The notes: generated by a model not told the origin, from the sequence alone. Counted from the first letter of the whole stretch, positions 13,242 to 59,982 are shown. The stretch is 59,982 nt of DNA, filler included, from Sphacelaria rigidula (GCA_964200075.2; 10 parts of 10 records of this genome joined end to end with filler, not necessarily neighbours in it), one strand, 5' to 3'. Numbers and translations: made by a program.

Positions 13242-16200
13242 TTCAGGATCTCCACGGCTGTTGGGGCCAATCAACGGCCGGAAGTAAGGAGCGTGAGATG
13301 TTGTTGAGGGTTGAGATGGTCCGGTGATGAGTGATATTCCCCCTCCCCCCCCTCCCCTTGTCTTTTGTGATCCCTTGTTCTCTGGAGTTGTAGGTCGTTT
13401 CGTCGTCGTTCGAGAGCGTGAAGCACATCTTTTTCATGATGGTACGTGTGTGTTTGCCAGCGATGATTGACAGTACTTTGCTTCGTCTTCGTTATTTCTA
13501 TTTTCCCTTGATAGCTCTGGTGCAAGGTTCCACCAAAGGCTATCGGGGGGACGGAGGCGCCCGCGCAGGGGAGGGGGGAGCGGTTGGGGGGGGGAGTACT
13601 CAGTTGTTGCTCGCCTTAGTCGTTCGACCATTGACATCGTATCTCTTTCGAGACGGAGCAAGCAAGGGACGGCGGGGATAAAAAGAGAGAGAACGAATGT
13701 AGAGGGTGTTCGTGTGTCTCTTCGCACGCCTTTTTTGCGTTGCGGAGTCGTATTTGAGTTTTGGGATTGCACTCGTCAACGCTCAACAATCAGGTGATCT
13801 TCCAGAAGGCCTGCGCTTTCGATTCGGATAGTTTTTCCCGCTCGTGTGTCGGTAGGTCTCCGATGTTCATCGCGAGGCTGATCACTGAGTCTGTAATCGG
13901 GGGCTCGGGGAAAGAAGTCATGGGGAATGATTTTTTTTCATTCGCAGTGATGGTGGGCCCCGAACAATGCTCCGTTTTTCTCCTCGAGCTTCGGGCGTGC
14001 TCGGCGTTGAGAACTGTGGGAGAGGACGATCGTTCAAGGGCAACGACCGTGAGATTGCTGCCCCGATCTCCCGTCGTAATAGTTGAGCCTCGTTTAGCCA
14101 GGTCTTGTTAGGAGATCTCGTCCTCCGCCTCCGCACTCTGCAGTACTCTCTAAATAACCTTTACTGTACCTTTGGCAAGTCAAACGGGGGCGTAGTGCTC
14201 GCAGCCATATTGCATTTTGATATGTATAATATGTACATGGTCGTGCCAACCAGTACATGTATTCGCAAGTGGGATCCAGCAGGTGATGGACAAAAAAGTT
14301 CTGGAATGCTGATGGATGGCACTCTTCACCGCACTATTTTACCTTCTCTCCACCTCTTGGGTGCGTACCGTTTTCCCTCAGATGCAATAATTCAACACTA
14401 GTGATGAGCCACGGCAGACGCACGTGGAAGCAGTGCCGCAGGTATCCACGTGGCATGTCTGGGGTGCGTCGAGGTGTCGAACACCATGGCGAAAAACGAA
14501 CCAATGGCCCTGTCATTCAGCATAACGTATCATTGGAAGATGAGGCCTTCCAATCGCACGGCAAACCGTACCCTCTACGAAAGAAGAAAGGAAGTCTCAC
14601 CGCTAGGGATGCGAGGGGGAGGGGGAGGGGGAGGGGGGGGTGGGGGGGGGGAGGGAGGGGGTGTTGGCCTTCGGGAAGTGTTCGGGCTGTCCGATATTTT
14701 ACCGACCATAAACCACTTGTTGGTTTCCGAAGATGCCCTCAATTTCCTTTTTTGTGCTGCAGTTTTGCCTTGTCGATGAAGCAAGAGGCAGGGAGAGGCT
14801 GGTGGGTTGCAACAAATATGTGAAGGTGTCGTGAGAGGTGGGTATAAGCCACAACAGCGACGGTGTGTCCGCCACTATACTGTACAGTGTAGTTGTGCTA
14901 CCACTGTACATATCAAACTATTGCACCGATTGCGCCGACTCCATGTTCTTGTAGGGACCTTTTTGACATGCGGAGTGAACAAAGATACCGATGTTGGTGA
15001 CCTAACTGTTACTAGGGTGGCGCATAGGCAACCTGCAACACACATACGGTGGTCGCGTCGACAGCTCGGTACAGCACGAGTACCTCCCCATAGGTGATGA
15101 CTATTCCGATGTCAGGAGGTCATTGATTATCACCACTCGAAAGGAGAGACGAGAGTGCTCTACGATCAACCGCATGTCGTTGCGTTCGAGACCCACGCCA
15201 TCAACGGCCGACAGCAAGGGTCTTGCAGCTTTCACGCGACGCTATCGGCAGTACGCCAGGCAAACCGGATCATAGCTACCTCTCGTCTGCGCAGTGGTGG
15301 TCACGCTAACTGCACCGATTTTGCAAGACCTGAGAAAGCTAGAGAGTTTGATTTTCATGAGCTGCATGCACAAGATGAAAACGGTTCCTAAAACCTTAGG
15401 GATGTTAAATACCGTGAGCTCCTGAGTATACGCACGATGCCCGTTCTTGCAGCGTGCTCACTGCTGCAGTCAGCAGGACGTGAAAGGGAAGCGCACGAAG
15501 TACAGTACAAACAGTGCAGGACTGTATATATTTATGTTTTTTGCTCAGAGTGCGCCGTGAAAAGGACTTGAACAGTGTGCACAGCTTTGTCTGCCTGCAC
15601 TGTTCATGGGTGTGTATGCAGTGAACCGCCCGTTGTTGCTCGCACCATACCCCGCTGCTCAAGTTCAAACTTCCACCAACAAGACATACATCATGCTCAA
15701 CTACTGCAGCGTGTATCTATATCCCTGTGCCCAACCCGTGCTCTTTGCTGCAGGGTTATCGTGGTGGTATTATAGCTGGGGATAAGTGTTGTCGGGTTTG
15801 CAATTCAATCTGTGAACGGCGGGTGATACATATATATATATTTTGGCGTGATGGTCCCAAAGGTCCCCTGGAAGCAGTTATAGGACACAAGTGCACAAGT
15901 GCTAATGTACACGCTAGAGGATACTGCACGGCTATGTCTTCCGGAGTCGCAACAAATGCCTTAGAGGCCATAGTCGGTCCCTCCGCCAGAGGAATGATGC
16001 TCATATTTTCCCTTTAAGGGACGTTCACGAAACCCACGTGCTCCGGTGCACCATATTTCTGGTACCTTGGAGGGATTCAGACCTCAGAAGTCACTGAAGC
16101 ACCAGATGCCCTCCAGAGTATTCGTTTCATGACCGGGACCGAGTATGAAATATCCTCTAGATGATATTTTTATCCTCCCGAGGGTCACTTTACCCTCGAG

Positions 16201-17488
16201 AGGGTGAAAATCGCCGAATGGCCGCGTGTGTGGCAAGGATAATCATACGAGTATGCACCTCATGTATCTGTCGACGGCTTAGTACTGTATTTTCAGTACA
16301 AGTTAAGCCTTACTTTGCTTGTGGATTTATCCGCTGTGTCTGAACGAACCAGCCTGAAATTGGCACAGAGGTAGACCACAACACAGACAGCACATTCCCG
16401 CATCGGCGGCACGTTTAACCCTTAGACAGCGAGAGTATGTTATGTGTGGAATCGGCTTCAATTTCACTTGAAAAAAGTATGCATGATCCAGGTAGACTAC
16501 CCTCGCGGTCTGAGGATCAACGTGGTGCGCCAGACGCACGATGAATATGGATTCTGGGCAATGCCGTCGATACGCCCTCAAAACAAACTCCCCTCGGCCC
16601 AGACTGTGTGAGACGTCAGTGGATGCATATGTGGACACGCAGATGCGCTCACTTTCACATCATGACCTGCTGGGTGGCTCCTTCCCGGGCAAACAAGCAT
16701 CGATCCGTATTGGGTACACTCTGGATGATGTCATTCTACACGATACCTGTCTTGGTATCGCCTGTAGGGGTACTTACTTCAGGAGGCACGGTCGTGCAAG
16801 CGCTGTCAGTGCTTTTACGCGCAGTGTATATTAGTATATTATATACATGTATTATTTCACCGCTTTTGCCGAGTTTTCTCTGGCCGCAAGGCATTTTTTT
16901 CCACACGTACTATTACGGCGCACCGAGAAGGCTCATCGGTACATTACCGTTCAGGTTTTGGCGCCATCTGATACCTGTGGCGCGTGTTCTGGCCGCCTAA
17001 AGTCGCTCAAACTGGCCTTTTTTTGCGGGGTGCCAGGTCAATGGTGTTATGACCATGGCATGCATGGTCATGAGTATTGCTCCGTCTCGAAAGGGATGCC
17101 AGGTCAATGGTGAAACGACTAAGACAAGCACTAAATGAGTACGCCCCCCCCGTCCCGTCCCGTCCCGATCGTTTCCTTTTACTTGTATCGTATTCGATCA
17201 ACGATCCTGCGCCACCGTCGAAGAAACGACTTGAACACTTCCTCCCCGCGATGTCGATAACAATACGGTGTTTCCTGTCTCCTTGGTTTGATTTTGATTT
17301 TTCCTGCTACCAATTTGCATTGTTCCCCGTGGTTTCTGTTTTCACCACCCATTTTTTTTCCTATTCGTTTTGTCTTCTTTTCTCCTCCTCTTGTCAGGCA
17401 TACGACAACCTGGCAGCGGCCTCCGCCTTCGCCGAGAAAATTCACGCCAGGATGCGCCTGCAGCACATGCAACGACGTCACACTATCG
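13242..17488 (+). CDS. Hypothetical spliced gene, partial; candidate exons 13242-13283, 13794-13851, 14112-14174, 17398-17488
   Basis: The first three exons chain in phase (FRISTAVGANQRPE-VIFQKACAFDSDSFSRSCVG-DLVLRLRTLQYSLNNLYCTF; the third needs a GC donor). 17398-17488 (AYDNLAAASAFAEKIHARMRLQHMQRRHTI) has a strong polypyrimidine acceptor but is not in phase with the third, so an exon is missing or the model is wrong. Confidence 0.35.
13586..13660 (-). mobile_element. Family A LINE 3' tail
   Basis: G-run + agtactcagttgttgctcgccttagtcgttcgaccattgac...tttcgagacggagca. Confidence 0.8.
16419..16516. mobile_element. piggyBac-type MITE, older copy
   Basis: TTAA|CCCTTAGACAGCGAG ... CTCGCGGTCTGAGGA|TCAA; shares the aatcggc.tcaatttc..gaaaaaagtatgcatgatccag core with 28350-28447. 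Confidence 0.78.
17030..17150 (+). mobile_element. Family B tail fused head-to-tail with family A tail
   Basis: gggtgccaggtcaatggtgttatgaccatggcatgcatggtcatgagtat followed directly by tgctccgtctcgaaaggg...aaatgagtacg-(C)n. Confidence 0.8.
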
Positions 17489-17871: not shown

Positions 17872-17923
<52 letters not shown>

Positions 17924-19261: not shown

Positions 19262-19680
19262 AGAAGGGGTATGTCGGTAGTCGAGGGCAGGCAGAAGCAG
19301 ATGCACAGAATTGCCCCCGTGGCAAAGCAAGAGAGGGTAGAACTCGTATAGTGGCAGAATGTGAACTATACGAGGAGGAACGGGACGTGGTAACGGGGGA
19401 AATGTGGGAAATGTGGGAGGAAAACGAAGGTGGCATGAAACCGTTTGATAGGTTAGACAGTAGCGGGAAAACGATCGCTATACTAGCAGATGGATGGTGG
19501 TCACAGACGGCAAAACAGGAAGGGGGTACGAGAAGGATTGAGGTGTTTGTGTCATGTATGAGATAAACGTGATGAGCGCGCAAATTATAGGAGTCTCTAT
19601 TAGAGGTAGGAACGGTGCTTCGTCTCGCAAGAAATGTGTAGTCAATGGTCAAACGACTAAGGCAAGCAACAAACGATTAC
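19262..19680 (+). mobile_element. Longest copy of family A non-LTR retrotransposon 3' end (degenerate C-terminal CCHC zinc knuckle)
   Basis: QNCPRGKAREGRTRIVAECELYEEERDV...LDSSGKTIAILADGWWSQTAKQEG resembles a decayed C-x-C...H-x4-C LINE knuckle. It runs into the ~65-nt tail (..NGAPSRKGCVVNGQxTKASNK*) that recurs at least 12 more times in the window. Confidence 0.75.
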
Positions 19681-20148
19681 CCATACACACAAATACACAC
19701 GTATCTACTCTGCTGCCCTGAATCCCTTGGGCTTTTTCCTTTTTTATTATTATCTCATTATTATTATGTTTTGTAATTTTTTGTTCTTCCCTTTCCTTTT
19801 TTCTTTCCTCTTTTCCTTTTTATGCTGTAGACCGGCCATTTCCTCCTGTGCTTTACTTTTGTAGATTTTTTTTTTTACGTCTTAGTATACTCTGTCGTTC
19901 TGTTCCACTTTTTTTCTGTTACTTATTTTTTCCTTCAGCGAGCATTTCAGTTTTATTATTTCTATGGTACGTCTTTCATGCGATCACGGCTGGACCGGGG
20001 TCAGTTAAAGTGCGACGATCAATCAATCAATTAATCAATCAAATCATGCGGTTCTTTCTCACAAGCCAAACTGCCAGCCGAGCCCTTTCCACCCCCTCAA
20101 GAACGAAGTGGATAATGACGATACACGCTACACGCCACACACACGCAG

Positions 20149-23197: not shown

Positions 23198-23303
23198 GGG
23201 GGGGGTGTACTCATGATATTGCATGCCGCAATCATGTGACTATTGGCCTCGCATCCCTACAAAGCCGGGACGGAGCACGCCGGGTTTTCGCTTGACCGGG
23301 CTC
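23198..23303 (-). mobile_element. Family B SINE-like element, 3' fragment
   Basis: gggggggtgtactcatgatattgcatgcc...cgcatccctacaaagccgggacggagcacg. Confidence 0.82.
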
Positions 23304-23822: not shown

Positions 23823-23862
23823 CTAGCATTGTATTGCGTTGCAGTACTGTCGTGCTGCGGGT

Positions 23863-23934
23863 GAGTCATCCTACGATAGGGGGGGGGTATTTGGTTGCAC
23901 GAAAAAAGAGGCTCATGAGTGTGTCAAACATCCT
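23863..23934. mobile_element. Family C MITE terminus, cut by contig end
   Basis: gagtcatcctacgatag-(G)n-tatttggttgcacgaaaaa. Confidence 0.8.
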
Positions 23935-24034: not shown

Positions 24035-24134
24035 CCCCGTCCCCGGGGGGCAGGGAGACGAAAAAAGTGGACAAAAGAATACAGCGCGCCAAAAACAAAA
24101 TAAACCCCCCCCCCCCCCCCCCCCCCACTGGAGC

Positions 24135-24639
24135 ATCCATCCTCGAGAGTTGGCGTCAGTCGGCAACGACGCTGTAAAAGACGCCACACACTACGTAAGC
24201 TAGTCGATCAAAAAGTCACTTCTTTTTTCACGCTTACGTTCTTTGTTTTGCTGTAGGCATGACGGTGGTAGAGCTAAATCATATCGCGCGGGGTGGAGAA
24301 CTCGAAACCCGCATAGAGGGAACGACGAGGTGCTTACATGGTGAGACACACATGAGGCAATGTGTAACCCGTGGCTTGTCTCTGGAAGTGGCAATACCGA
24401 AAAATGGAGCAACTCATTGGAGACTGTCATTCGAATACAAGATATTCAGTATGCTTCGGGCCGAACAATCTTCGGATGCAGGTCACCCTTCGCGCGACTC
24501 TCCGAACACATAACGGCGCTTCGCGCTTGGTGATTGATTGCGAGCCTTGTCCGCCGAAAACCAGGCGTGCGCCGTCCCGGCTTTGTAGGAATGCGAGGTC
24601 AAATGCCATGTGTACGGCATGCAAGATCATCATGAGTAA
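24135..24639 (+). mobile_element. Family B SINE-like element, near full length
   Basis: Collinear with the reverse complement of 56170-56672; preceded by a C-run. Confidence 0.85.
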
Positions 24640-25130: not shown

Positions 25131-25245
25131 GGGGGGGGTGGGGGCGTACTCATTTATTTATTTCCCTAGTGGATTGACCATTGACTGCGCGTCCCTTTCG
25201 AGATGAAGCACCGTCCCTAATCCTAATAGAGACACCTCCAACATT
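25131..25245 (-). mobile_element. Family A LINE 3' end (longer fragment)
   Basis: Translates PNVGGVSIRIRDGASSRKGRAVNGQSTREINK*; G-runs on both sides. Confidence 0.8.
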
Positions 25246-30042: not shown

Positions 30043-30106
30043 TACGTAGTGAGTGGCGTGTTTTATAGCGTCATCGCCAACCGACGCCAACCCCATCGGG
30101 GGTCCG
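30043..30106 (-). mobile_element. Family B SINE-like element, 5' head (cut by contig start)
   Basis: Reverse complement is ggacccccgatggggttggcgtcggttggcgatgacgctataaaacacgccactcac. Confidence 0.8.
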
Positions 30107-33265: not shown

Positions 33266-33765
33266 TGAAGGAAGAGGAGGGGGTTCCGCAGAAAAAACAA
33301 GAAAAGAAGAAAATATACACGATTCCCTGCCGATTTTTCACGTGTCCCCATGCCAACATTCAATTTATATCCATGGATCTTGTACTTGTGTGTGTGTTTT
33401 GCTGTTGTAAACCGCCCGCGTATTCTGATGCTCATTGACTTCTTGTCATGCCCCCATGTTGTCGTTGTCATGATCCAAAATTTGTTGCCGCTGCTGCTGC
33501 TGTCGTCGCTGTCTGTGCAGGAAGCTCGTTAATCTTTTGCTCCGGGTGGTTGGAGTGTCCATGTGCGCATTTTATCTGAGACATATTCACAACATGTGGT
33601 TTGTCAAGTTTGACTACGGCTACAACATGAAGGTGTGCGTGCGCGAGTGTTTGTACAAGTCATATTTCAATATTTTTTAATATACCTTTGGCTAGGGCGG
33701 GTACAGGAGGGGCAGGGGGGGGGGGGATTATCCCTCCCTCTCCCCCCAAGAGACTGAAGGGGCGA

Positions 33766-33980
33766 GACCAGAAAATGAAGCAACTCATTGGAGGCTGTCA
33801 TCTAAATGCAAGATGATCAGTAGGCTTCAGGCCGAACAATCTTAGCAGGATGCAGCTCACCATGCGACTCGCCGAACACACCACGGCGCTTCGCGCTTGA
33901 TGGGTGATCCGTTCCGGCCTTGTAGAGGTGCAAAGTCAATGTCCTTATGACTACGACATGCAATATCATGACCACACCCC
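33766..33980 (+). mobile_element. Family B SINE-like element, 5'-truncated with internal deletions
   Basis: accagaaaatgaagcaactcattggaggctgtcat...atgactacgacatgcaatatcatgaccacacccc. Confidence 0.78.
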
Positions 33981-35864: not shown

Positions 35865-35950
35865 GTCATCCTACGATAGGGGGGAGGGTGTACTCATGAT
35901 CATGCATGCCATAGTCATGAGAACATTGACCTCGCATCCCTACAAAGCCG
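35865..35950 (-). mobile_element. Family B tail inserted in the G-run of a family C MITE terminus
   Basis: agtcatcctacgataggggggaggg followed directly by tgtactcatgatcatgcatgccatagtc. Confidence 0.8.
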
Positions 35951-36050: not shown

Positions 36051-36195
36051 CTTGAGCTGAAATTTCAGGAAGACCTTCTGCACCCAAGGAACGGATACGT
36101 CACGTGTCCAGCTGTAGATTCTCATTTTTTTCCTGGACTCACGACATTATCTTGTTTTTGCCGAAAGTTTAAATGCCTATAACTTCTTTTTTTTC
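36051..36195. repeat. Interspersed repeat, also at 54190-54335 (inverted)
   Basis: cttgagctgaaatttca.gaagaccttctgcacccaagg shared. Confidence 0.75.
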
Positions 36196-36526
36196 CCTCT
36201 TTTTCTTTGCTGGTCAAGCGATCTTCTGCATTTTGATCACTGAAAGCTGCTGTCAAAATTTCAGCGTCAAACTCCTAACATCGCGCCGTGCATCGCCTGA
36301 GCGAGGTTCACACCTGCTCCTGGCTGGCCCAGCTCGTATCTAGATTTTCCGTTTTGTACTCATACTTCTTGTGCTTGTTAGACGGGCTGAGGTGCGTGCA
36401 TATGCCCTCTGCTAGACTACATCCCTTCGGACGAGGCGCGATAACGTGTTCGCACTTGATGTAATCAATTCGCCCCCCGATCCCTCCCGCCATTTCACCC
36501 CGCCTTGTGCGTCGCATCCCCCTCAG

Positions 36527-39500
36527 GAGGCCTTTGGGGGGGGCGAAAAACATAGCAAGAGCCTCGAGGGTTTTGGAGGGGAAACGATGCCTATTCCCCC
36601 GCATCCATGGGAGCAGTCCACAATCGCCCCGACTAGACCGCCTCCGACCGACAGGAGTTCCCCCGCCGACGGCCTGGAGCTGGAGCGGATACATGGGTGC
36701 GTTTGGCCTTCTTTGATGTCGTGCTGGCCGGGGAGCACGTATTTGATGTCCGAGCGTCTTCTATTTGTGGATTGCCGTGCGCACAATGTCACGATGAAAT
36801 GTTGCTCCACTTTCCTACCGATCGAGATTCCAAGTATTTTGAAATATATTAACTCTTCACCTCACCGTAAAGATTGTGACCAGGTATCCCTCAAGCTTGG
36901 GCACGCGGGCACATTCATCAGCGAGCACTTGCGTAATGTTTGCCGTTCCATACTTGATTCGGTACAATGGCTTCATGTGGCCAGGCGTGACTGGGATGCA
37001 AATACTAGCGGAACTTAGGCTACACTGTTATTTTCCACTCGTGTTTCATCTCGGGCACGTCTATATCACGTGATCACGACTGCATTGTTGACGGATCAGA
37101 TATTGTGCGACAATCAATCAACCAACCAATCAATCAAAGTCAAGATCTCAATCAGTCAAGTACACGTTTAATATATACGTGATAACGTGCTGGATCGCAA
37201 TTCGCGTGGTAATTGTCGTTTTTCGTTGTTCGGAGTCCGTGCTACCGACCCGAGATGCTTTCCGCATCCACTGCACAACTGACCGTTCTATTTGCTTGCC
37301 TCGTGGTGTTTCGAAACCGACCAGAACGACACGTACTGTTCCACACAATCAAGTTAACGAATCCAGCTTGACGAGCTCCAGATATCTCGACGTGTACTCA
37401 CCAGATGCACTTCGCCCAACACGCTCTCTTGGCGTGTTGTCTTAGCATATCAACAACCGAACCCCCCCCCATGTCACCCTGCTCCGTCTCGAAAGGGATG
37501 CGTGGTCAATGGTCAAACGACTAAGGCAAGCAACAAATGAGTACGCCCCCCCCCCCCATGTCACCCGGCTCTTGCACAGATACCGAGGGCGAGATACGAG
37601 GAGCAGCGCCGCATATGCTGGGGCTAATGGGGAAAAGGCTGTTTACACGGCAGCGGCCACCGGTGTCAGCCTAGATCTCGTCAACCACACTCAGGTACCG
37701 AGCAAATAATGGCGCAAGACAGTGATCAATATTTCAAGGGTCGGATGGATAATGATTTGTCCCGAAAACTACTCGATTTCAGTATTGTTGATTATTACTG
37801 CACGAATCGATCACTGGGCTTCGTTTTCAGCGTTACATCCAAGAGACGCACAGCCCAGTAGGCACGTGGAATGGCGCAAAATTCGCATGGAGACTTTATT
37901 GACCCGCGGTCAACGTTTTTGTCTCTTTTAAGCGATCAGGACCCGAAGATCATACATTTGGTGATGTGAATCGGCGATAATTTGTCCGACCCTCGTAGGT
38001 TAACACTTGGTCCATATGGCATGCTTGCTTGCCGCAAGAAAATGGCGGTCTGGCCTTTCCTCCGCGCATCTCGCTATGGAGGTTTACATACTCGATCCAC
38101 ACGCACGTGCTGCATACCTCGGGGCGATGACTCCACAGAGGTTCCAGCTGGGCCATGCCGGAGATACTGCGTGCCTTGCCGTGTCGCCAGACGGTTTACT
38201 GGTCGCTACGGGCGAGGTTTCGAGAAGACCGAACATTATCGTCTGGAGTGCGGAAGGCGCAGAGGCTGTACAGGTAGGACATGAGCGGAGAGGGCCGCCA
38301 AGGGTGAAGGGAAAGGGTCACGGGGAGGGGCGGGGGTCACCTGTGGGCGCACAGTGTAGAGATACGCAGCAGATAATGGAAAGGGGAAATCGTGGAGTCG
38401 AGAGTGAGGTTGCGCACTGCTATTGCTACTCATAGAGAACGATACCCCGATATTGTGGTCGGCGGTATTATGCTGTGTGCATAGCTGGAACATGAAATGA
38501 CCCTTACACGGGGTACAGCAAGCTATGCAAAAGCGTTCGCGGCATGCTACATGCAGCCTACTTCCAGCAACCTAACGCAGCGTGAATGAATTCTTGACAA
38601 ACTGTCAGATCCGTTTCGGCGTGACTGCCTCGATGTTCACCCCAGCCCCACGCCCTTCGCACCACCCGCATTCTACTTTCCTTGTCATTTGTGCCTTTTA
38701 GACATTATCAGGCTTCCACAGGCGAGCCGTGACGACCCTTTCGTTTTCTCCTGATGGCCGCCATCTAGCATCTCTCGGGTGCGACGATGACCACAGCATC
38801 GCAGTTTACGACTGGAGAAACCGTCTAGTCAGGGTACGTACGTCGATGGTCGAGATGCGAGAGTATGCCGTTGTCCCTAGCAGTTGTACACACCCCGCAG
38901 GACGCCGTCGAAGGAACGTGCATCGCTTGGACCAGAAGGGAAAGGCTACAGACATAGTAAAATGCCCCAACAATAAGAAACAGTACAAAAAATATCCTGT
39001 ATCTGACCAAGGCACAGCAGACGACTACGTTTGTGGTACGGAAGGCAAGAACAGAGTTTCCCATGGCGGGATTACCACATAAGATCCCAAGTGCTTTGAC
39101 ACATGGGACACTGCAAAATGTTGTTCTCCTCAGGGTACAACCGCGAAGCGTCGCGTGACACTTTCTATGATAGCCCCTCCCCCCCGAAACCAGCCCAACA
39201 GTGTCACGGAAAAAGCGATCATACAGCGCCTGATGCTTGGGTTCAGGCTGAATGAAGCGCCTCATATGGGCGACATTGGCGAGGACGAACCCACGCGTGG
39301 GAATTTCCAGCTGCTCGTTGTGCTCGGCTTTTCCCATTTCGAGTTACGTGAAAATTCTGCCTCCCCAAACCAGGTATGGGTTTTTTTGGGGGGGCTATCG
39401 TAGAAAGTGTCACGTTCCAAGTTACCTCCCTCGATCTCCTGTCGCCGACTCGTGCAGGCAACCGCCAAGGGCGGTCGGCGCAAGGCCCTATGTGTTGCTT

Positions 39501-41765
39501 GGAACGGTCTCGGGACGCGCCTAGTATCGTGTGGTCTGAGGCACATAAACTTCTGGACGTTTGTCGGGCGCAACCTGGTTCATTGCAGAGGTGTCCTAGG
39601 GAACAAGGGGAGGAAGCAGACGTCTCCCGCTTGCGCCTTTATAGGAGATACTGCCGTGGTGAGAAACCTTATTTTGTCGCTGAAACATATCGTGTTCTCG
39701 GGTGTGTGTGCGTTATGTGTATTCAGTGTAACTAGGTATGGGTTTAATCCAATCTCATCGTTTACGGGTTCAAGTATACCCTCCACGCGGACGCTGTCAC
39801 GGTAAATATAAAAGATCGCAAAGTGATCGACATTCGACTGATCCTCGGGGAATTAGCCGTGGCCACAAGGTGGACGTACTCGAGGCAAACAAGATCAAAT
39901 GACAGATGCCATTGGATGCACGAATGTAGTGTACAATTGAAACTCCCAAGCCATGTGCTGGCGGACAGGCACAGAACATAGACGTGTACAAGTGCACGGG
40001 TCAGCCGTGGTCACAAGGTGGACGCACCCGAGGCAAACAAGGTCAAATGAAAGATGCCATTGGGTGCACGAATGTAGTGTACAAATGAAACTTCCAAACT
40101 ATGTGCTGGCGGACAGGCAGAGAACGTAGACGCCTACAAGTGCACGGAACCCCAGTAGAAGAGGCAGGCGAGGCATCCTACAGATTCCCCCGTGTCGATG
40201 TATCGCTGGAACAGAGAACGTACATCCGCCGTACTCGCCACGACGGAGACACGAAACTGCCTGCGTCCATTATGTCATGACGAGAACGCCTCTGTTGTCG
40301 AAATACCAACCCCATGTAGGTGGGCACAGGAGACGGACACCTGTACGTGTTCGAAGCTGGCTCCACGACTTTGACCAGATCGGTGAAGGCTCATACAGGC
40401 AAGTCCTTTCATGACAGGGAGGCATTTCTCTTCGTTGCCGGGCATACATGGCATTTCATCATCTTTGCCGCCGAGGAACGCTTTCACGCTTTCTCGCCGT
40501 TAACCCTTTTGGAACCTATTGACGATTTTTGTATTTGTTAATCGGCATCATTTTGACTCGAAAATAACTGAAAATGATATCGATTCACAAAAGAAAAAAT
40601 CGTCGATGCATTCCAAAAGGATTTATAATGTTTTTCCATAGCGTAGCACCACGTCGCCAGGGAAGCTTCGCTCATCAAGTATCATGGAGGAAACGAAGGC
40701 ATCCTTCCCGGGTTGATATTTCCATGGATTTGGTCATTCGATATTCTCGCCGTATCTTCGAACGTATCCAGGCTCCGTTTATGCCTTGCATCCCGTGGGA
40801 GGACCAGGGGGGCTGACTTCGGGCCCTCCAGGTGGGCTGTGGAGTGGGGGCAAGGACGGTCTGGTCAAGCACTACGATGATCAGGTGCATTTTCACGAAA
40901 GACGGCATTGCGCAGACGTGGTGAACCTCAGAGGCTGTGGAGTGCAGATTCAAACAGAATCAGAGGTGGCGAAACATCCCGACATCTCCAAGCAGGGCTA
41001 AGATTCGAATCTTTACATCGCTCCTGAATACATGGATGTCTTCAAATATTCTGAGCAAAAACCCATCACACCATACCGCCGGGGGCGCACGTCGATGGCT
41101 ATTCTGAATCCCCAACTGTTATGCAACTTGGTGATTACGACCTTTCTCACGAGGTCAGCATAGTTCTCGCTGTAGGAGCCACAAGGGTCCAGCCGCAAGG
41201 CTCGCACGAGAGCGGAGATCAGCGCAGGGATGGTAAAATATAGATGCGGTATACGACAGAAACAGTGCAGCGTAGAGGGGGTGTCTTGCACAGCCGGTGG
41301 GTGCGATGTTCATGGCTGGTACTGCAGCAGAGTGAGATCGTGAGTGCATACAGTACCAGTGGCACTAGGCGGTGACCAAGGAGCCCCGTTGACACGAATG
41401 TGCTGTTAATTCGAGAGAATGCCCTTGTTTGCGTTGTACTTACACACTCAGTAGCTGATGCCGATATCATGATGAAAAGCGATCCGTACACAGCGACATA
41501 TTACCCATCCTGAGCGCACACCCCGACGTGACAGCACGTCTCAATTACAACCACTGAACACAAATATAGCAAATGACGTTACAGCGCATGTTTGATGCTA
41601 TATCTGGGTATCTTTGCCCCCGCGCCCCTACCGTTTCTGGCCTGCGGTCCTTTCATACGCCATACCACACCACGCCGCTCCACGTAGGTTCGCGGGCTGA
41701 AGGAATATAGTGTAGCCACGATTGCCTCCAACGGCGCTCCGGGAGGTGCTGCGGGCGCGCTCAAG
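36527..41765 (+). CDS. EML: Echinoderm microtubule-associated protein-like (EML/EMAP, HELP + WD40) gene, partial; exons 36527-36696, 37580-37694, 38139-38273, 38702-38833, 39458-39658, 40320-40398, 40772-40884, 41688-41765
   Basis: All exon phases chain correctly. The HELP motif PADGLELERIHG|YRGRDTR is split by an intron. WD40 repeats: GHAGDTACLAVSPDGLLVATGE...IIVW; FHRRAVTTLSFSPDGRHLASLGCDDDHSIAVYDW; LVSCGLRHINFW; VGTGDGHLYVF; LWSGGKDGLVKHY. Truncated by the contig ends. The last exon is less certain. Confidence 0.9.
37480..37545 (+). mobile_element. Family A LINE 3' tail with perfect 18-bp TSD, in EML intron
   Basis: CCCCCCCCCATGTCACCC at 37462-37479 and 37549-37566. Confidence 0.92.
39156..39412. 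mobile_element. Family D MITE (257 bp), TIR TGACACTTTCTAYGATAGCCCC, TSD CG
   Basis: cg|tgacactttctatgatagcccc ... ggggctatcgtagaaagtgtca|cg; in EML intron. Confidence 0.88.
39855..40147. repeat. Tandem duplication, 2 x ~148 bp
   Basis: agccgtgg.cacaaggtggacg...tacaagtgcacgg twice. Confidence 0.85.
40504..40621. mobile_element. piggyBac-type MITE, related subfamily
   Basis: TTAA|CCCTTTTGGAA ... TTCCAAAAGGA|TTTA with an aatcggcatca core; a similar palindromic core is at 8911-8961. Confidence 0.65.
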
Positions 41766-41958
41766 GTCGGTGAACACGTATCCCGAAGAGCGTTTGATGT
41801 GGCTTTACGTCTCTGGCACAAATTTGTGCCGGTCGAACAAGGCGCTCGTCGAGCCCTGCGCAATACTTTAGAAACAATGTGTCGCTGAGGTATTCGTCAC
41901 CGGCACATCCGGCTTGAGCGGGAGGAGGGAGGGGGGGGGGGGGGGGGGCGCCCCTCGC

Positions 41959-42869: not shown

Positions 42870-43122
42870 TGACACTTTCTACGATAGCCCCCCCGCCAAA
42901 AAGTGCATGGTTTTGGGAGGCAAAATCTCCACATGAAGAAAAATGGGGAAAGTCGAGCGCAACGAGCAGCTGGGAATGCCCACGCTTGGGTTCGTTCTCG
43001 CCAATGTTACCAATATGAGGCGCTTCATGCAGCCTGAATCCAAACATCAGGCGCTGTATGGCCATTTTTTTCGGGGCACTATTGGGCTGGTTTGGAGGGG
43101 GGGGCTGTCGTAGAAAGTGTCA
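42870..43122. mobile_element. Family D MITE, TSD CA
   Basis: ca|tgacactttctacgatagcccc ... ggggctgtcgtagaaagtgtca|ca; opposite orientation to the 39156 copy. Confidence 0.88.
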
Positions 43123-44713: not shown

Positions 44714-47713
44714 CTGCATGTACGCCGTATCTTTCCCCACAGCAGTGGCACCACTACCACCACCCGTACCGGTGATATCCTGTACCAACGCCGTGGCCAC
44801 AGCGAGGCTATCCCATGTGCTCATTAGCGGATACAACCGGATTCCGCCGCTCTGCAATAATAGAGAGCATTCAAGCAAGAAATTCGACAGGTTCTCGGCA
44901 ATTGTAGACATTACAAGACACTCATACATATATATATATACTTGACTGATTGGTTGGTTTTCGAACTTTCACTGATCGCCTAGGGATCCAGCCGTCGCCA
45001 CATGATAGACGAACCGGAGACAAAGCAAAACTGATACACTGTATATACATTGAGTGTAAATATGAAAAGCACATGTAAGCATAACCGACTTCACTTATGG
45101 CGCAGAGGAATGATAGGAATACGTAACGGACCCGCCAACGCCTCCCACGTAAAGTACGACGAAACCAACCTCCTGAGTACCATCGTGAAACGCATGCGGT
45201 ATAACCATATAATTCCTCAGGCATAATAGTATACCATGACAAAACTATTGCCAGCATAAATCTTGGAGTCGTCCTACGATAGAGGGGGGGGGAGGATTTT
45301 GGGACACTTCTTGCACGAAATTCCAAGTCAAATCGTCGTTGAAAGGAGCAGCAGTTGCTGGAACGAGCTTGTTATAGATTAAGAATGCTCATACATACCG
45401 ATTGACACCGTTTTGAACCAAACACAAGCGCACCGCGAGTGTGGCAGGCCGTCTGACACACTTTCGAGCCTCTTTTTTCGGGTAATCAAATACCCCCCCC
45501 CCCATCGTAGGATGACTCCTTGGGGGATGCTAACCTTTGATGCCTCGTGATGATTTCTGATGAAAAGAAACATTGAAAAAAGCTGCAAGCTCTGTGCCAC
45601 ACCTCGGTGTCTATGTACAAAGGATCTGCCGGGCCTTCATTTTTGCCCACATGCGACTCTTCCATGGCCAGAGATCGCCCGCTCAATCCTAACAACCTCA
45701 GAACAACATAAGGATCGCAAGGGGTGGAAGGTGCGGAGGGGGGGTTCATGCAACTCACAAAAATTCGCGATTGGCGCATACTTGCATTGTCGGACCCTCT
45801 CCACAAGACCATACGATTTGGACACCACCCTTTGCCTTGCCCAGCAATGTCCCTATGATCATCAAAAGGTCAGCCAAGACCTTTTGCACAGGCGAGCAAA
45901 TTGTGTGGAAGTACTTGCGCTCGGCACGTGCGCAAAGCGCGGGATTGAGAAAATGAATTACGGTCCAACTTTTCAATCGACACGGAAATCGGACATGAGT
46001 TTTAGGACAAATTTTCAATCTTACACACGAAAAAAATGACGATGAGCGCGCAATCCACGCGGAAATCGGGAATAGTGTTTAGTCCAAATTTCGATCCTAC
46101 GAAAGAAAAGAGGAAAGTGAGAGCGCAATCCACACGGAAATCGGGAAAAAAAAAAAGGTCCAAGTTTTCAATCCACGCTCAAGAGTTTTCCAGTCCATGT
46201 TTTCAATCCTATACAAGGTCAGGGGTCTACACGTTACACGTTCACGTTCACGTTCACGTTCACGTTCGTCAAATTTGGCCTTCACGTTACGTTTCGTTTG
46301 GCACGTTAAAAAAAATGTAACGTTACGATAACGTTTGATTCGAAGAATTAACGTTACGTTCACGTTTCGTTCAACACGTTAAAAAAATGTATCGTTACGT
46401 TTTGTTACATGTTACGTGGTATGAAACGTTTCATGTAACGTGTAACGTCTAATATGTCGTTTCATTGACACGTGTAATGTTCGAATGTAACGTTTCATTC
46501 CGTACATTTCGCCGCTCATTAATCAGTGTTTAAGGTGTTGTAACGTGTCGTGTAACGCGTGACGTTACCGAGTACGTGACGCTGACGGTGGCCCGTCGTA
46601 TGTTTGAGCATTATCTGATTGTGTAACGTTACCTTCTCTATAGTGTATCGTCCATTCGTTTTTTACCGTAAAATTTTCATAAGTCCTCTTTTCTTTTCAT
46701 CGTTTTGCTTTCAGTCTTCAATTTTCAAATGCGTGATCATTCCCACGACAGCACATAATGTACACACAACAGATCTTGAACATGATTGAACGCCGGCCTG
46801 AGTCGTCCTGGCATTTCGCAGACAAAACTATATCGGGTACTCCTGGTTCTATTTATGTATACATGGACAAATATGATAGTTCATCACGGCCGTTAAAGGT
46901 AAGCGTATGTATGTATGTAAATACTGCGGAATATGTATGTATGGCAGGCTTACACCACGGTCCACGCAATCAATGCATTTATCTACCTTGACAAGCTTTT
47001 GTTCCGCTGTACACAGACTAATGGATTCTTCACTTGGAAATTTAACGTTCACGTTACGTTACGTTTATTACGTAAAATAAATTGAGCGTTCACCTTGCGT
47101 TTAGGTGAAAACGTAACGTCGTGGCACGTGTAACGTGTAGAGCCCTGGTTTGTTGAAGCACAATTTTCTAGGATTTTAAAATTCATCGCAAATTTGAAGT
47201 GTGCACCGCTTCATGTAACGTGTTTGTAACGTTTCATGTAACGTGGAACGTAATATGAAACGTCTCATCTAACGTGAAACGTCTAATGCACGTGTAACGT
47301 GTTATATACGTGACACGTTTCATGAAACGTTTCATATTACGTGTTTGGACGTTTGGACAATTCAACGTTCACGTTACGTTTCGTTTGGCACGTTCAAACA
47401 ATATAACGTTACGTTAACGTTTCATTTAAAAATTTAACGTGACGTTCCCGTTTCGTTTGGCACGTGAAAAAAAAATAACGTTCACGTTACGTTTCGACCA
47501 AGACGTAAAGTGTAACGTTGTGGCACGTGTAACGTGTAGACCCCTGAAAAAAAGACAGTGAGCGCTCCGAATAACATAAAGTTTCCGTATTTTCGCTACA
47601 CTCATGAGGAGGAAATATCGCAGTATTGGGCAGCTCTGAGGGATACCGAAACGCCATCACTTCCACGGCTACTCTCAACACGGCATCCTTGAAAATGGCG
47701 ACGAGATATTCCT
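44714..47713 (-). CDS. Hypothetical spliced gene, partial; exons 47713-47647, 45852-45782, 45688-45603, 44851-44714
   Basis: Four AG/GT-bounded exons chain in phase (2,1,0): EYLVAIFKDAVLRVAVEVMAFR-DIAGQGKGWCPNRMVLWRGSDNAR-LSGRSLAMEESHVGKNEGPADPLYIDTE-SGGIRLYPLMSTWDSLAVATALVQDITG...AYMQ. A further candidate exon lies near 42513-42637. No family recognised. Confidence 0.5.
45265..45519. mobile_element. Family C MITE (255 bp), TIR GGAGTCRTCCTACGATAG(G)n, 2-bp TSD TT
   Basis: Both TIRs are present. Inverted-orientation copies are at 47729-47966 and 23863-23934 (cut by contig ends). Confidence 0.85.
45965..46215. repeat. Minisatellite, ~75-bp unit, ~3 copies
   Basis: caatc.ac.cggaaatcgg...ttt(t)caatc recurring. 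Confidence 0.65.
46220..47546. mobile_element. Non-autonomous hAT-like element(s) with ACGT-rich subterminal arrays
   Basis: TIR caggggtctacacgttacacg / cgtgtaacgtgtagacccctg. A second right end is at ~47125-47147. No TSD recognised. Confidence 0.75.
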
Positions 47714-48066: not shown

Positions 48067-48113
48067 GGGGGTGTACTCATAATCATGCATGACATAGTCA
48101 TAATACCATTGAC
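48067..48113 (-). mobile_element. Family B tail fragment
   Basis: gggggtgtactcataatcatgcatgacatagtcataataccattgac, followed by a G-run. Confidence 0.72.
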
Positions 48114-52954: not shown

Positions 52955-53974
52955 GGCAACCCACACTCTCCCCAACAAGATAGACACAAGATGCCTGTGC
53001 AGGTGTTCCGAGTGTGTGTACACTGCTGTCTCGGAGCCGTGGCAATTTTTCAAAATCCGCCAAGTTTTCAAGACCGGTTTTAGACGCTAAAGAGTCATTC
53101 AAGCCCCTTTTAGTGCATATTTGTGGGGTGGGTGTTTCCAGAAACCCGACGGATTTCGCCGGATTTCATATGCGCGAATGCTGGGCGACGCCTTCCATGG
53201 TGAAATCGTGACGAAAAAAACGATTTGTGGGGGCGCCTGGCGATCGGGGTACTTGAACTGAAAAGAAGTGGCGCCTGAGGATGTTTGAATTTAAATTTTT
53301 GAATCCTCGGCGAAATCGACATCGCTAGTTAGTTATGCATTAACCTCTCAAGGAAGTCTCTGAGTATTGAGGCCCACTGCTGTTGGTGCAAGTAGCCATT
53401 ATTGCTGTACTGCACTACCGTACTACACTTTTATGGTGACTTCTGTATACTCACTGAATATGAGTATTTTCATGAATCATCGGTGAGTGTACTTCTTCAC
53501 TTTTTCCTTCCCTTGTATATACATACTGTTTTGTTATCGTTAGCTTGCGCAGTCACTACAGTATACTCCTGGTGGTATTACGTACAGTAGTGGGCGGTCT
53601 AACTATCCATTTTGTGGCATTTTGTGACTTTTTACTCATTTGCGATTTTCGTGAGGCCTTTTCGCTTGCCATCGCTTCTCCATCACGTTGGGGACCTGAG
53701 GATATTTGTATCCGCTCAACACTCCAAAAAAAAACATATGTACTAAATATTGAGTGACTTACGTACGGGCTGACCGGTGATCGGAGGTCCTGCCACGTTC
53801 CAACCCAGATTCCTACTCTTCGGTATTTTCGGTCGATCGAGCCTGTCTCGATCATATTTTTGAAGAAATGTTGGGGTCACACAGGAAAGAGGTCAACACA
53901 GCAATTAACAACAAATTGTGCGAATTGAGGTTTAACTTCGAGATGAGGCTCAAGCCCAAAACAGTGCTTTCCTC

Positions 53975-54649: not shown

Positions 54650-54840
54650 AGTACGATCATCCCCTCTGCGCGGAGGTCGGGTTTGGGTTCTCCCACCCTG
54701 CACAATATGATCTAGCTCGACCACCATCATGCCTACCACAAAAACACCACAAATGCTACGAAAATGGCAACCTCGCTGTCTAGCTTATGCAGTGAGTGGC
54801 GTGTTTTGAAGGGTCGTTGCCAACCGACGCCAACTCTCAA
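54650..54840 (-). mobile_element. Family B SINE-like element, 5' part
   Basis: Aligns with 56485-56670; followed by a G-run. Confidence 0.8.
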
Positions 54841-55872
54841 AAAGGGGGGGGGGGGGGAGGTCTTTCTTAAGAGTATAGGGAATAGATCAAGTGACCACGA
54901 GAGAGGATAACAGCGTAGCGTTGACAGTGCACATCAACACAATCCGTCACGGCACCGATTCCAGCACTTGCCGACGCACCCTTGTCCCCAGGACACCACA
55001 TGTACATCCCTTCTCCCGAGGTTCTCGGTACGCCTTAAGTTGGGGTCAGGGTTAGCGTTAGGGTTGAGGAGTCATATCCAGAATGGGCAATAACCACGGT
55101 GGTTTGACGACCAACTCGAGAAGAACCCGCCTCGTCCTACCTGTACGGCCAATGTTTACATGTACTACTGCGCACAGCAATAGGTTGCAGCTACTTGTAG
55201 TGTGTTGTACTGTACAACATAGAGCACGGGAAACTGTGGCGTACTGATAAACCATATATTATTTTGCTGCACTGCATGGTACGGTACGGTACGGTGCGGC
55301 TATACTGTATCATGTAGCAGCGAGCTGGAGGCGTGATGGATGGGAAAACCGTTTGATAAGACTCGCTTTACCCGACGACGGTCATCGACCTCTTGGGAGA
55401 GAAACTTCCTTATTCTTCTTCACAGGATGACAAGAGGAAAAAGCTATAATCTGGAGAAGAACAAGAACTCTCCTGATCTTCCAAGACAAGTTATTATGTT
55501 CACTGTAAGAACCAATGCTCTCATTCTAATATGACTGCCGGTGCACCAAATTCAAATATTGTAGCAAAAGCTTTCAACATTAAAAAAAAACTTGTATATA
55601 CCCAGAGAAGGGACCATTGAGAAAAGATTCGGCTTCCGTAGGTAAGCGACCTCAACACATAACTCGACTTCCCTCGAGCAACCTCGACCTGCCTGTATCC
55701 CAACGCACATGTGGCCCGGAACCCACCTCACAGAACCCCAGAACCCCAGCCGTCCCTCCCACTACAACAACCTCTTCAACGGCCATCCTGTATCCTACTC
55801 AAGACTTCGACCGACACGATGCGGCCCCGTTTCATTTCCTTTCTATTCATGCATGCCCGTTGGATAATTCAC

Positions 55873-56169: not shown

Positions 56170-56672
56170 GGTGTACTCATGATCTTGCATGCCGTAGTCA
56201 TGTGACCACTGACCTCGCATCCTACAAAACCGGGACGGGTCACGCCGAGTTTTCGCCGGAGCAGGCTCGCGATCACCAAGCGCGAAGCGCCGTCATGTGA
56301 TCGGCGAGTCGCACGAAGGATGACCTGCATTCTGCTCAGAGTGTACGGCCCGAAGCGTACTGATTATCTTGCTTTTGGATAGCAGCCTCCAATGAGTTAC
56401 TTCATTTTCAGGTATCGTCACTTCCAGAGACAGCCAAGGCTTCCACACTGCCTCATGGGTGTCTCACCATTTAAACACTACGAAAGTACGATCATCCCCT
56501 TTGCGCCGAATCGAGGTGCTCCTACCCCGCACAACATTATCTAGCTGGACCACCATCATGGTTACCGCAAATGAACGCAAAGTGAAGAGAAACCGTTAAC
56601 CTGGTTGCCTAGCTTGTGCAGTGAGTAGCGTGTTTTATAGCATCATTGCCAACCGACGCCAACCCTCAAGAG
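56170..56672 (-). mobile_element. Family B non-autonomous retroposon (SINE-like, ~500 bp), near full length
   Basis: Head ttggcgtcggttggcaatgatgctataaaacacgc; tail ggatgcgaggtcagtggtcacatgactacggcatgcaagatcatgagtacac-(C)n; similar G-rich flanks on both sides (degenerate TSD). Confidence 0.85.
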
Positions 56673-56850: not shown

Positions 56851-57097
56851 CGCTCCGTCTCGAAAGGGATGCGTGATCAGTGGTCAAACGACAAGGCAAG
56901 CAACAAATGGGTACGCCCCGTAGGAGTAGGAACGGTGCTCCATCTCGAAAGCGATGTGTGGTCAATGGTCAAACGACTATTAGGGCAAGCAACAAATGAG
57001 TACGCCTCCCCCCCTCCCCCCCGGTCCGTCTCGGAAGGGATGCGTGGTCAATGGTCAAACCACTAAGGCAAGCTAACAATCAGTACGCCCCCCCCCG
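56851..57097 (+). mobile_element. Three head-to-tail family A tails
   Basis: Units ~56851-56920, 56921-57020, 57021-57097, each ending in gtacg + C-run. Confidence 0.88.
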
Positions 57098-57322: not shown

Positions 57323-57366
57323 GTGCGTGCGTGTGTGACAGAATGGGGAGGAAGGGGGGGGGGGGG

Positions 57367-57664
57367 GCTACTCATGATCTTTCATGCCGTAGTCATGTCA
57401 CCAGTGACCTCGCATCCCTACAAAGCTGGGACGGAGCATGGCGGGTTTTCGCCGGACCAGGCTCGCAATCAATCACAAAGCGCGAAGCGCCGTGATGTGT
57501 TCGACGACCCGCATGAAGGGTGAGCTGCATCCTGCTAAGGTTGTTGGGCCAGAAGCCTACTGATCATCTTGCATTTGGATGACAGCCTACAATGAGTTGC
57601 TTCATTTTCTGGTATCGCCACTTGTAGAGATAGCCACGGCTTACACACTGCATCATGGGTGTCT
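57367..57664 (-). mobile_element. Family B SINE-like element, 5'-truncated, in MTHFR intron
   Basis: Aligns with 56170-56465; preceded by a G-run. Confidence 0.85.
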
Positions 57665-59715
57665 TGGCGAGGAAGGGGATGCGGGAACTATCTTCAGTTT
57701 TGTGTTCATCGATTGATACCCTTGGTTTTGTTCTTGTGTACAATTGTATGCCATGTGGCTAATGCAGCACTGCTTGCAGACCTTGAGATGAAGAGAAAGC
57801 TACCACTCATCTTTCAGATTGGTTTGCATTTGACAAAAAAAAAATGAAAAAATATATATAAATATTTATATAAATAGTGCGCAAGGTTTCGGCTTTTTTT
57901 TTTCTGTTGTACACACAAAAACACGCCTCACGTTCTCGCACAAACTTGACGGAACTGTGACTCCACCAACCCCTCCCCCACCCGACGAGACAGACTGTAC
58001 TTTGGATGATGACCCTGGTTCGTTTCACTACTCTAGTTCTTCACCCTTACCCTGGAGGAGGGGAAACGGGGGGGAAACGGGGGGCTGTGTATGGGTCCTC
58101 TTCTGGTGTTTTTTCTGTATGTTTGGTATTGGTCTTGATTTGTACGAGCTTTTTTCGCCTCTTTCGCCATTTTGATTGACATCACAGGTTCTTCTTGCAA
58201 TGCTGCTGACGTTGTGCGTACGCAGCGCGTACAGTACAAGTGTAGTATACTTTGGTCAGTATTTGGTCATTTTTGCTTCTGTTCATGGGAGGTCGGTTGG
58301 TTGATGGGTCATGTATGTGTTCATTGGTTGATACAGAGCGATTGCATCCGCTACGGATCCAGCCGTGGGGCACGTGCACGGTAATCCAGGACACGTTTTT
58401 TCGCTTTTCGAGTTCGATACACGAAGAAAACTTGTGAAGAGCACAACGTTTTATAGGTGACACGTGATAGTACATGAGCAACATGAGCGCAGTCCGATCC
58501 GCGCAGAGGATGCATGGCGTCGCAGGGGGCGGGAAAAGGGTCGTCCCCAGGGGGTGGTTTCTACCGTGAATTCAGGGGGTGGTATCCAGCGTTTTGATCT
58601 ATACCGTGCGAATGGCAATACGTGAGTGATTTTGGAATACTTGGATTATCGAAATAATGAAAACATAAAAAATAGTTCTTTACTCCGAGATTGAGTCAGT
58701 GCCCCCCGCCCCCCCTCCAAACATGATCACACGGATTTAATATATCGTTTTGGCCTGTTACACACGAATGGCGATACGCCCAAACACACGAACGCATCGA
58801 TAGAACGTCTAAACAATGGCTTTTATATTCCCGACTCCCCGTTTGTCTCCACCCGCAGACGAAATCGCTCTATTTCCTCCCCATTCACGATGGATTTGTT
58901 ACCTACCGTTTCTGCGAGTTACAGGGGCATTCAGACATGAATGGCGATGCCCCTGAGCACGCGCGAGGTATATTTAGAACGTATTCACTGCGTGCTAATT
59001 ACTCATGACCCCTTCCTTCCCCCATTCTCCTTCCCGTAGATGAAGTCCACGCATTTCCTCCCCGAAAAACATGAGCTGAACGGAGGTGTTATCCGGCGTT
59101 CCAGAGATTCGGGGCCGGATGAGGATAAAATCTGAACACGTGACTGGTACCGGTTGAAAGCCTGAAACCTACCCCATGTAGTTATATACATCGGTTTTCT
59201 TAACGGGACTTTGGACACCCGAGGAAGATGATTCATGTCCTTCCTTCGTACGCGCAAGGGTCATTATGCACCGTCAATAAGTGTTATATAGAGATGGTCA
59301 CGCCCCTGAACACGCGGGGGGAACATCCGAACGTTCTTTCCTATCCTCCTGCTTTGTAACCCCTGCCCTGCCCCCTCCGCGCGCTCCTTCTTCTCGGGGA
59401 TGAAATAAATGTAGCCATTCCCCAAACCATTTCAGCGGGAAGGGGTTGTTATTCGACGTGTGAGCCATTTGCGACCGGAAAACTATGAATTCGAACACGT
59501 GACAGATACGCTTGTCGTTTGTTCTTGACGAACTTCAGACACCCCGGGGAAGATGTTATTCCATCCCCTGCTTTTGAGTACGTGCTGGTATCATGATCTA
59601 CGGTCAAGGCCTGGTAAATACCAATGCTAATGCCCCTGAGCATGCGAGTGGTAGCTATAACGTACGCATCCTACTTCTGGTCCGAGACGACTTCCCCGCC
59701 CCCCGCCTACCCCTC

Positions 59716-59772
59716 GTGGCCAATGGTCGAACGACTAAGGCAAGCAACAAATGAGTACGCCCCCCCCCCCCC
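59716..59772 (+). mobile_element. Family A LINE 3' tail with TSD
   Basis: C-run+TACCCCTC on both sides (59708-59715, 59774-59781). Confidence 0.85.
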
Positions 59773-59820: not shown

Positions 59821-59982
59821 CGGACCCTCGATGGGGTTGGCCTCGGTTGGCGATGACGCTGTAAAACACGCCACTCACTGCGTGAGCTAGGCAACCAGGT
59901 TACCGTTTTTTTCTGCGCGCTTGCGTTTTTTCTGCGGTAACCATGATGGTAGTCAAGCGAGATCATGTTGTGCGGCGTGGGA
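59821..59982 (+). mobile_element. Family B SINE-like element, 5' head (cut by window end)
   Basis: cggaccctcgatggggttggcctcggttggcgatgacgctgtaaaacacgccactcac... Confidence 0.82.

Follow-up and report, generated by a model that had tools for sequence, protein, structure and literature searches.

A C-tailed LINE remnant in an intron of the brown alga Sphacelaria rigidula and its association with genomic C-runs

The insert at 37480 and its host gene

We analysed a window of 59,982 bases, consisting of ten ~5.9 kb segments of Sphacelaria rigidula DNA with N spacers between them, and focused on a 66-nt insert at position 37480. The insert is one copy of a sequence family, termed family A, for which the original prediction had proposed a long interspersed nuclear element (LINE) without poly(A) that integrates by target-primed reverse transcription. 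Pfam searches of the open reading frames (ORFs) in the window assigned the region 38004-39802 to exons of an EML-like WD40 gene. In run X5, which comprises spliced RNA contigs in which RNA ends and levels are not readable, one contig links exons 36526-36695, 37579-37691 and 38136-38271 of this gene. Because this contig is spliced across the intron that holds the insert (Table 1), the insert is intronic and located about 20 nt from the acceptor. The C12 run following the insert lies in sense orientation ~20 nt upstream of the AG acceptor (37546-37578) and adds a pyrimidine tract beside the 3' splice site; normal splicing is still seen in the spliced RNA contig.

The duplication around the insert is perfect over 18 bp and contains three additional C on the 3' side. 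The sequence at 37462-37479 and 37546-37566 thus bears out the C-run-led 18-bp duplication of the original prediction, and the reading frame stops, as had also been proposed, 5 nt before the end of the element (TGA at 37538-37540). Most likely, the 37480 feature represents a dead, 5'-truncated copy of an autonomous brown-algal retrotransposon lacking long terminal repeats, whose grouping with RTE-X elements is taken up below. For the annotation of the S. rigidula genome, this means that short, C-flanked intronic units of 66 nt are to be read as LINE tails and not as new genes or RNAs.

Family A copies and the full-length element

The 21-mer at the element end had ten matches at up to 3 mismatches in the window, as compared to a mean of 0.00 in 100 shuffles, and a blastn-short search with the 66-mer returned 13 family A copies at E<=1e-5. 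The predicted number of at least 13 copies was thus recovered; they are spread over six of the ten segments and not over seven contigs, weak matches in two more being tails of family B, a second family described below. Where the 3' end is visible, which is the case in 12 copies, ten show at least 10 C within the next 12 nt, in keeping with the C-run that had been said to follow nearly always, and an A-run, as in the poly(A) of L1, follows none of the 12. With respect to their 5' ends, seven of the 12 copies in which this end is visible start within 3 nt of TGCTCC, while the remaining lengths are about 412, 92, 79, 45 and 33 nt. The predicted variable truncation therefore holds as a range from 33 to ~412 nt, but its distribution is not even. 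Duplications led by a C-run were found by script at 37480, at 5150 and 59715 (the latter two predicted at 5150 and 59716) and around the family B copy at 57369-57664, and by eye at 3578. Across these five insertions they measure 15-22 nt, those found by script about 18-22 nt, and each starts with the C-run. Truncation from the 5' side combined with target-site duplications of varying length is characteristic of LINEs. The longest family A copy could be aligned (19270-19673) to residues 1281-1412 of an intact ORF with one frameshift, and its CCHC knuckle has decayed, as predicted, to CPRG...R....C vs CPCG...H....C.

Only the 3' end of the LINE is present in the window, where no reverse transcriptase (RT) ORF was found among 95 ORFs of at least 110 aa. 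Exact 21-mer scans identified the tail in three metagenome contigs (L001-L003) and in one contig filed under an uncultured bacterial metagenome-assembled genome (L004); viral contigs gave no match. Intact ORFs end in this tail in L002 (1412 aa), L004 (1382 aa) and L001 (1253 aa, open at the contig end), with the stop codon TGA located 5 nt ahead of a C8-C13 run in all three. L003, a frameshifted contig of 1045 bases, contains this tail as well, with interrupted C-rich sequence after it. A Pfam scan covering L001 and L002 detected an Exo_endo_phos domain (E 6.7e-13) and an RVT_1 domain (E 1.1e-30) in the L002 ORF and the same two domains in L001. The endonuclease precedes the RT within a single ORF, which is the arrangement of LINEs with an apurinic/apyrimidinic endonuclease (APE-type), and the L002 translation contains a C-terminal CPCG...H....C knuckle. 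In the ~750 nt upstream of the L002 ORF start, the element strand holds no ORF of at least 80 aa; both L002 and L004 stop short of the element's 5' end. From these data, we consider it probable that the complete element spans at least 5.2 kb and encodes one ~1400-aa ORF with an APE-type endonuclease, an RT and a C-terminal CCHC knuckle, ending without poly(A) and next to a C homopolymer. Together with the 5' truncation and the duplications, the RT/endonuclease ORFs that end in the tail substantiate the proposed poly(A)-less LINE spreading by target-primed reverse transcription. The record with the intact algal LINE ORF of L004 bears the title of an uncultured bacterial genome, and this contig is most likely a eukaryotic contamination of the bacterial bin.

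Family B is a ~494-nt non-autonomous retroposon with 13 copies in the window. Homology to the family A tail covers its last ~70 nt, which terminate in ...CATGAGTACA followed by a C-run; C-rich sequence was found after six of ten family B tails. Full-length copies start with GTTGGCGTCGGTTGGC, shortly past a C-run. At 56172-56700, the stretch TCCTCCCCATCCTC was considered as a duplication and rejected, as the other full-length family B copies identify it as the element's 5' end. At 17021-17143(+), a family B 3' end is joined to a family A copy with no C-run between them, a fusion that could have arisen by a template switch of the reverse transcriptase between two RNAs.

Identity among L001-L004 is 0.91-0.98 at positions 23-66 counted from the 3' end, compared to about 0.8 in most upstream windows (range 0.47-0.92); over the last 21 nt, which served as the scan query, identity is a matter of ascertainment. 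Judged from these alignments, the 3'-terminal ~66-95 nt may constitute an RNA module recognised by the RT; this stretch is coding, shows nucleotide-level conservation and is common to family B. Such a module agrees with the original prediction that the 3' signal lies inside the coding sequence, given that just 5 nt separate the stop codon from the element end and that the conserved tail is coding. By eye, a 5-bp stem can be drawn as GTCTC/GGGAT in family A and GTCCC/GGGAT in family B, with differing loops; its retention in both families is a hint only.

Four read runs were placed on the segment 36051-41958, and contig depths were summed per bin. One run in which the locus occurs is labelled "algae metagenome". 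In run X3, the bin containing the element reached a summed contig depth of 1,334,740, about 10^5 times the ~12.7 of single-copy bins, a value that is not itself a copy number. As a rough estimate, the copy number lies near 10^5, and the 13 copies per 59 kb in the window point in the same direction. C-runs extend past the element in hundreds of contigs, and joints in the read contigs that go back by 72-77 and restart at 37480/37481 indicate tandem units. Run X8, which stems from a different species, contains a tail that differs at 6-7 of 78 nt (about 91% identity). The 72-77-nt unit period seen in many contigs, the array at 56852-57087 and the single position shared by seven of 12 visible 5' ends are also features that would suit a satellite or a miniature short interspersed nuclear element (SINE), in which the 66-nt unit plus its C-run spreads by tandem duplication or from its own transcript, largely independently of the LINE. 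We regard this as quite improbable, because the dispersed units at 37480 and 5150 have unique duplications of their own, which mark retroposition over unequal crossing-over, and because the X3 plurality consensus upstream of 37480 continues as LINE in 578 contigs, with an overall agreement of no more than 0.45, vs 108 contigs that break at a C-run. Moreover, no SINE head (tRNA, 5S, 7SL, snRNA, polymerase III) was found for the 66-nt unit or family B in an Rfam search of the whole window at gathering score, and neither a SINE head nor a ribozyme near the element matched Rfam at E<=10.

C-runs at the insertion sites

Foldback repeats of ~260 bp, resembling miniature inverted-repeat transposable elements, occur at 39154-39414, 42870-43122 and 45265-45519, and also at about 23860-23890 and 50200-50240. 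Their terminal inverted repeats of 27-32 nt are of two types (CTATCGTAGAAAGTGTCAC and ATCGTAGGATGACTCC), with a C- or G-run just inside each arm, and the bin 39203-39399 had a summed contig depth of 327,490 vs about 12.8 in single-copy bins. The family A copy at 5150 resides in such a repeat, its left flank aligning to the arm and its right flank, over ~180 nt, to the interior. In the intact paralogues at 39154-39414 and 42870-43122, the C-run plus AAACCAGC is uninterrupted and no LINE is present. These paralogues are a paralogous empty site for the 5150 copy, in which the C-run pre-exists, and they lend support to the proposal that the C-run is the genomic target opening the duplication. The L002 tail and the 35889(-) tail likewise abut the C-run and terminal repeat of the foldback family itself; the C- and G-runs of these repeats serve as LINE targets. 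At the 5' runs at 37462, 5133 and 59693, no recognisable older tail was found upstream, and at 5150 and 3578 the run interruptions are common to both copies of the duplication. Taken together, the lack of an upstream tail, the common interruptions and the paralogous empty site lead us to conclude that the C-run pre-exists in the target. Target-primed reverse transcription thus very probably inserts the element where the sense strand already bears a C-run, and the duplication opens with that run.

The same flanks bear on a different explanation, namely that the C-run is nothing but a tail borne by the element, templated by the RNA or produced by RT slippage as in the microsatellite tails of LINEs, and that the 5' runs result from landing in older tails. 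The 3' runs are indeed longer or purer than those on the 5' side (12 vs 9, C13 vs C4-G-C6-G-CC, and C14 vs CCCGCATCCCC), C continues in run contigs for 16-22 nt past the 12 C of the 37480 copy, and tandem arrays are common. However, a purely carried tail would account poorly for 5' runs that no recognisable tail precedes, for a run at 5150 that belongs to the foldback repeat and is present in intact paralogues devoid of the LINE, and for interruptions that both duplication copies have in common. We therefore consider this explanation unlikely.

Several observations weigh against our favoured explanation as a whole. In each of the five insertions with a duplication, the run on the 3' side exceeds its 5' counterpart in length or purity, and an element-borne C-tail of some size may contribute. 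The anticipated C-run is absent on one side at 17078 and at 24637. Runs of at least 7 nt across the window number 64 for C/G vs 4.8 expected and 73 for A/T vs 7.0 expected; A/T homopolymers are thus also enriched ~10-fold, and the C/G-run excess is not specific to the family A LINE. In the four runs placed on 36051-41958, an orthologous empty site at 37480 was not found and no contig skips the insert, while run X4, from another strain or sample, also carries it, reaching the element from the left flank. As for the proposed recognition module, the RNA fold is no better than shuffles (z = -0.02), and the consensus fold (alifold) yielded just a 3-bp stem with no compensatory change, from a MAFFT alignment in which families A and B were in part misaligned. 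Finally, RNA structure or a ribozyme was considered as the cause of the 5'-end hotspot at TGCTCC and rejected, as the fold is at shuffle level and no self-cleaving ribozyme (hepatitis delta virus-like or others) at the 66-nt boundary matched Rfam at E<=10.

To reconcile pre-existing runs with longer 3' runs, we favour a run supplied by the target and slightly extended through pairing or slippage, with the G-run priming on C residues of the RNA. In such a mechanism, the endonuclease would nick the strand opposite, at the G-run's 3' edge, and the freed G-run end would prime complementary DNA synthesis by pairing with C residues that terminate the RNA on its 3' side. The C residues of the RNA would come from read-through into the C-run flanking the donor copy, and a register shift or slippage would lengthen the new 3' run by a few C. 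As each insertion would duplicate the C-run, copies together with their runs would become new targets; tandem arrays would form because the duplicated run offers a new target at each insertion. The endonuclease itself may read the G-run, or else G-run/C-tail pairing may select the productive nicks. As a tentative proposal, somewhat less probable than its opposite, the C homopolymer would be provided by the target as a primer-binding site and regenerated with each insertion, instead of being carried as a tail, with the endonuclease nicking at the G-run edge and the G-run priming on read-through C. If this holds, the element would become the first LINE for which a mechanistic dependence on a C/G homopolymer is shown, and its insertions would have spread C/G-runs and 66-nt tail-only arrays across brown-algal genomes, reaching ~10^5 copies. 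G-run priming, if correct, would represent the GC counterpart of the T-tract/poly(A) pairing of L1, provide a system for separating endonuclease specificity from primer-template pairing, and explain part of the homopolymer load of brown algae.

The coordinates of the insert and of the other family A and B copies are compiled in Table 1. Elsewhere in the window, Pfam identified an MTHFR exon at 57067-57492, whose closest protein is from the brown alga Scytosiphon promiscuus (71% identity). A 398-aa open frame at 51893-53086(-), possibly an orphan gene or a chance ORF, has no Pfam domain, and its sole database match is its own sequence. Two stretches ~150 nt apart, 21420-21474 and 21570-21623, with an N gap between them, end in ...CATTTCAT(A/T)CTG(T/G)GATA followed by C19 and C17, respectively; this unit may represent a further C-tailed retroposon family. 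A C51 run occupies 17872-17922, at a segment end.

Table 1. Positions of the insert, its duplications, the host intron and the family A and B copies
Feature	Coordinates	Strand	Remarks
5'-truncated family A tail, 66 nt	37480..37545	+	last ~19 codons; stop TGA 37538-37540, then 5 nt GTACG
5' target-site duplication	37462..37479	+	C9 + ATGTCACCC
3' target-site duplication	37546..37566	+	C12 + ATGTCACCC; 3 C more than 5' copy
Host intron holding the 37480 insert	36696..37578	+	from spliced RNA contig; GT..AG; boundaries ambiguous by 1-3 nt
Family A, cut by window start	1..60	+	C-run at 59-73 next
Family A, about 33 nt	3578..3610	-	C/T-rich duplication, T interruptions common to both copies, read by eye
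Family A inside foldback repeat	5150..5218	+	duplications 5133-5151 and 5219-5240 (C-run + CAAACCAGC)
Family A, cut by segment end	5865..5909	+	5' end abuts C6-A-C8-A-C8 tract
Family A, 66 nt	13595..13660	-	C9 next
Family A fused to family B 3' end	17078..17143	+	family B part 17021-17076; no C-run between; C8 next
Longest family A	19270..19681	+	ORF residues 1281-1412; frameshift; decayed CCHC knuckle; no C-run next
Variant subfamily, ~92 nt	25145..25237	-	same C-terminal peptide frame; C5-A-C8 next
Head-to-tail array of three family A units	56852..57087	+	units 56852-56915, 56926-57004, 57025-57087; C-rich spacers; C10 before, C9 after
Family A, 45 nt	59715..59759	+	duplications 59693-59714 (C4-G-C6-G-CC + TACCCCTC) and 59760-59781 (C13 + TTACCCCTC)
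Full-length family B, ~494 nt	56172..56665	-	tail ...CATGAGTACA + C-run; C12 run about 20 nt upstream of 5' end
Family B copy 57369-57664 (297 nt) with its duplications	57344..57685	-	5' side CCCGCATCCCC + TTCCTCGCCA; 3' side C14 + TTCCTCCCCA
Family B copy	2914..3222	-	
Family B copy	9743..9845	-	
Family B copy	17021..17076	+	
Family B copy	23206..23303	-	
Family B copy	24117..24637	+	
Family B copy	30048..30093	-	
Family B copy	33756..33971	+	
Family B copy	35889..35950	-	
Family B copy	48072..48113	-	
Family B copy	54650..54860	-	
Family B copy	57369..57664	-	
Family B copy	59834..59982	+	

Lineage and comparison with known elements

Of 7999 candidates scored in a search with the RT region, 452 proteins had E<=1e-3. 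Among named matches, proteins of Ectocarpus sp. CCAP 1310/34 rank highest, with 63% identity over the RT region, and the C-termini of these proteins (...APSSRGRVVNGLTAK) are homologous to the tail peptide. In the curated Ectocarpus table of transposable elements, RTEX-1_Ec32 is described as "single EN-RT ORF; (C)n 3'" with a "C-rich" target-site duplication (TSD), and RTEX-2_Ec32 has the entry "(C)n termini/TSD" (PMC12477816, supplement). The same supplement lists RTEX-N1, of 607 bp, with "60 bp 3' end 83% RTEX-1/RTEX-2" and "can be present in tandem", as well as an RTE element with (CAA)n (PMC12477816). In the main text of that source, "C-rich" appears 0 times and the C-run is not discussed, and a table gives 16,418 RTE-X copies in Ectocarpus (PMC12477816). 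An RTEX-1 is also reported in the Saccharina genome paper. The novelty implied by the original prediction therefore did not survive, as its features match an already described family, RTEX-1/2_Ec32, at least in the terms of that supplement (PMC12477816).

Judged from matching features and protein homology, rather than from a consensus alignment or an RT tree, the element most likely belongs to the RTE-X group curated as RTEX-1/2_Ec32. Set against this assignment, the Ectocarpus database proteins carry no RTEX label. As in RTEX-1/2_Ec32, there is probably a single EN-RT ORF (with an element length of 5.5-5.9 kb there vs at least 5.2 kb here), the 3' end is (C)n, the TSDs are C-rich and the host is a brown alga. 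Family B resembles the RTEX-N elements of Ectocarpus, since RTEX-N1/N2_Ec32 are likewise non-autonomous partners with a common ~60-bp 3' end and tandem copies, as found here for family B and the arrays. Unlike RTEX-1/2_Ec32, with which it was compared by description and proteins, the present element has another host species and represents a diverged family (63% protein identity), and its apparent copy number by depth is roughly 10^5 vs the 16,418 copies of RTE-X in Ectocarpus. Beyond the Ectocarpus catalogue, our analysis adds the duplication geometry, the 5' hotspot that gives rise to 66-nt tail-only units and arrays, the ~494-nt non-autonomous partner family and rough copy numbers near 10^5.

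Mammalian L1 is an APE-type element that is 5'-truncated, encodes ORF1 and ORF2, and uses a T-run target paired with poly(A). As in L1, the duplication described here starts with a homopolymer matching the element's 3' end, which would imply a nick that frees a complementary primer, in this case a G-run facing C. In contrast to L1, the element has no poly(A), almost no 3' untranslated region (UTR) and probably one ORF, and its conserved tail is common to a partner family. The latter feature suggests stringent 3' recognition, rather than the tail-only recognition of L1. CR1, L2 and UnaL2 have short-repeat tails and stringent 3' recognition. Our element resembles these three and the Ectocarpus RTE with (CAA)n in its very short 3' UTR, terminal repeat and 3' module common to non-autonomous partners; it differs from them in having a one-base repeat unit and in that this homopolymer is already present at the target.

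C-tailed LINEs that insert into C-runs are rare. Literature searches on poly-C-tailed retrotransposons revealed no C-homopolymer LINE outside brown-algal RTE-X, and in the literature searched the kind is mentioned only in a supplementary-table note (PMC12477816). A LINE of this kind is thus already catalogued in Ectocarpus, and the trait is real and unusual. Waldo, Mino, Kibi and Koshi, reportedly described by Kojima and Fujiwara, are said to be R1-clade LINEs that target di- to tetranucleotide repeats. Like these elements, the S. rigidula LINE inserts into simple repeats that match its own 3' end; unlike them, its target is a C homopolymer and it most likely belongs to RTE-X.

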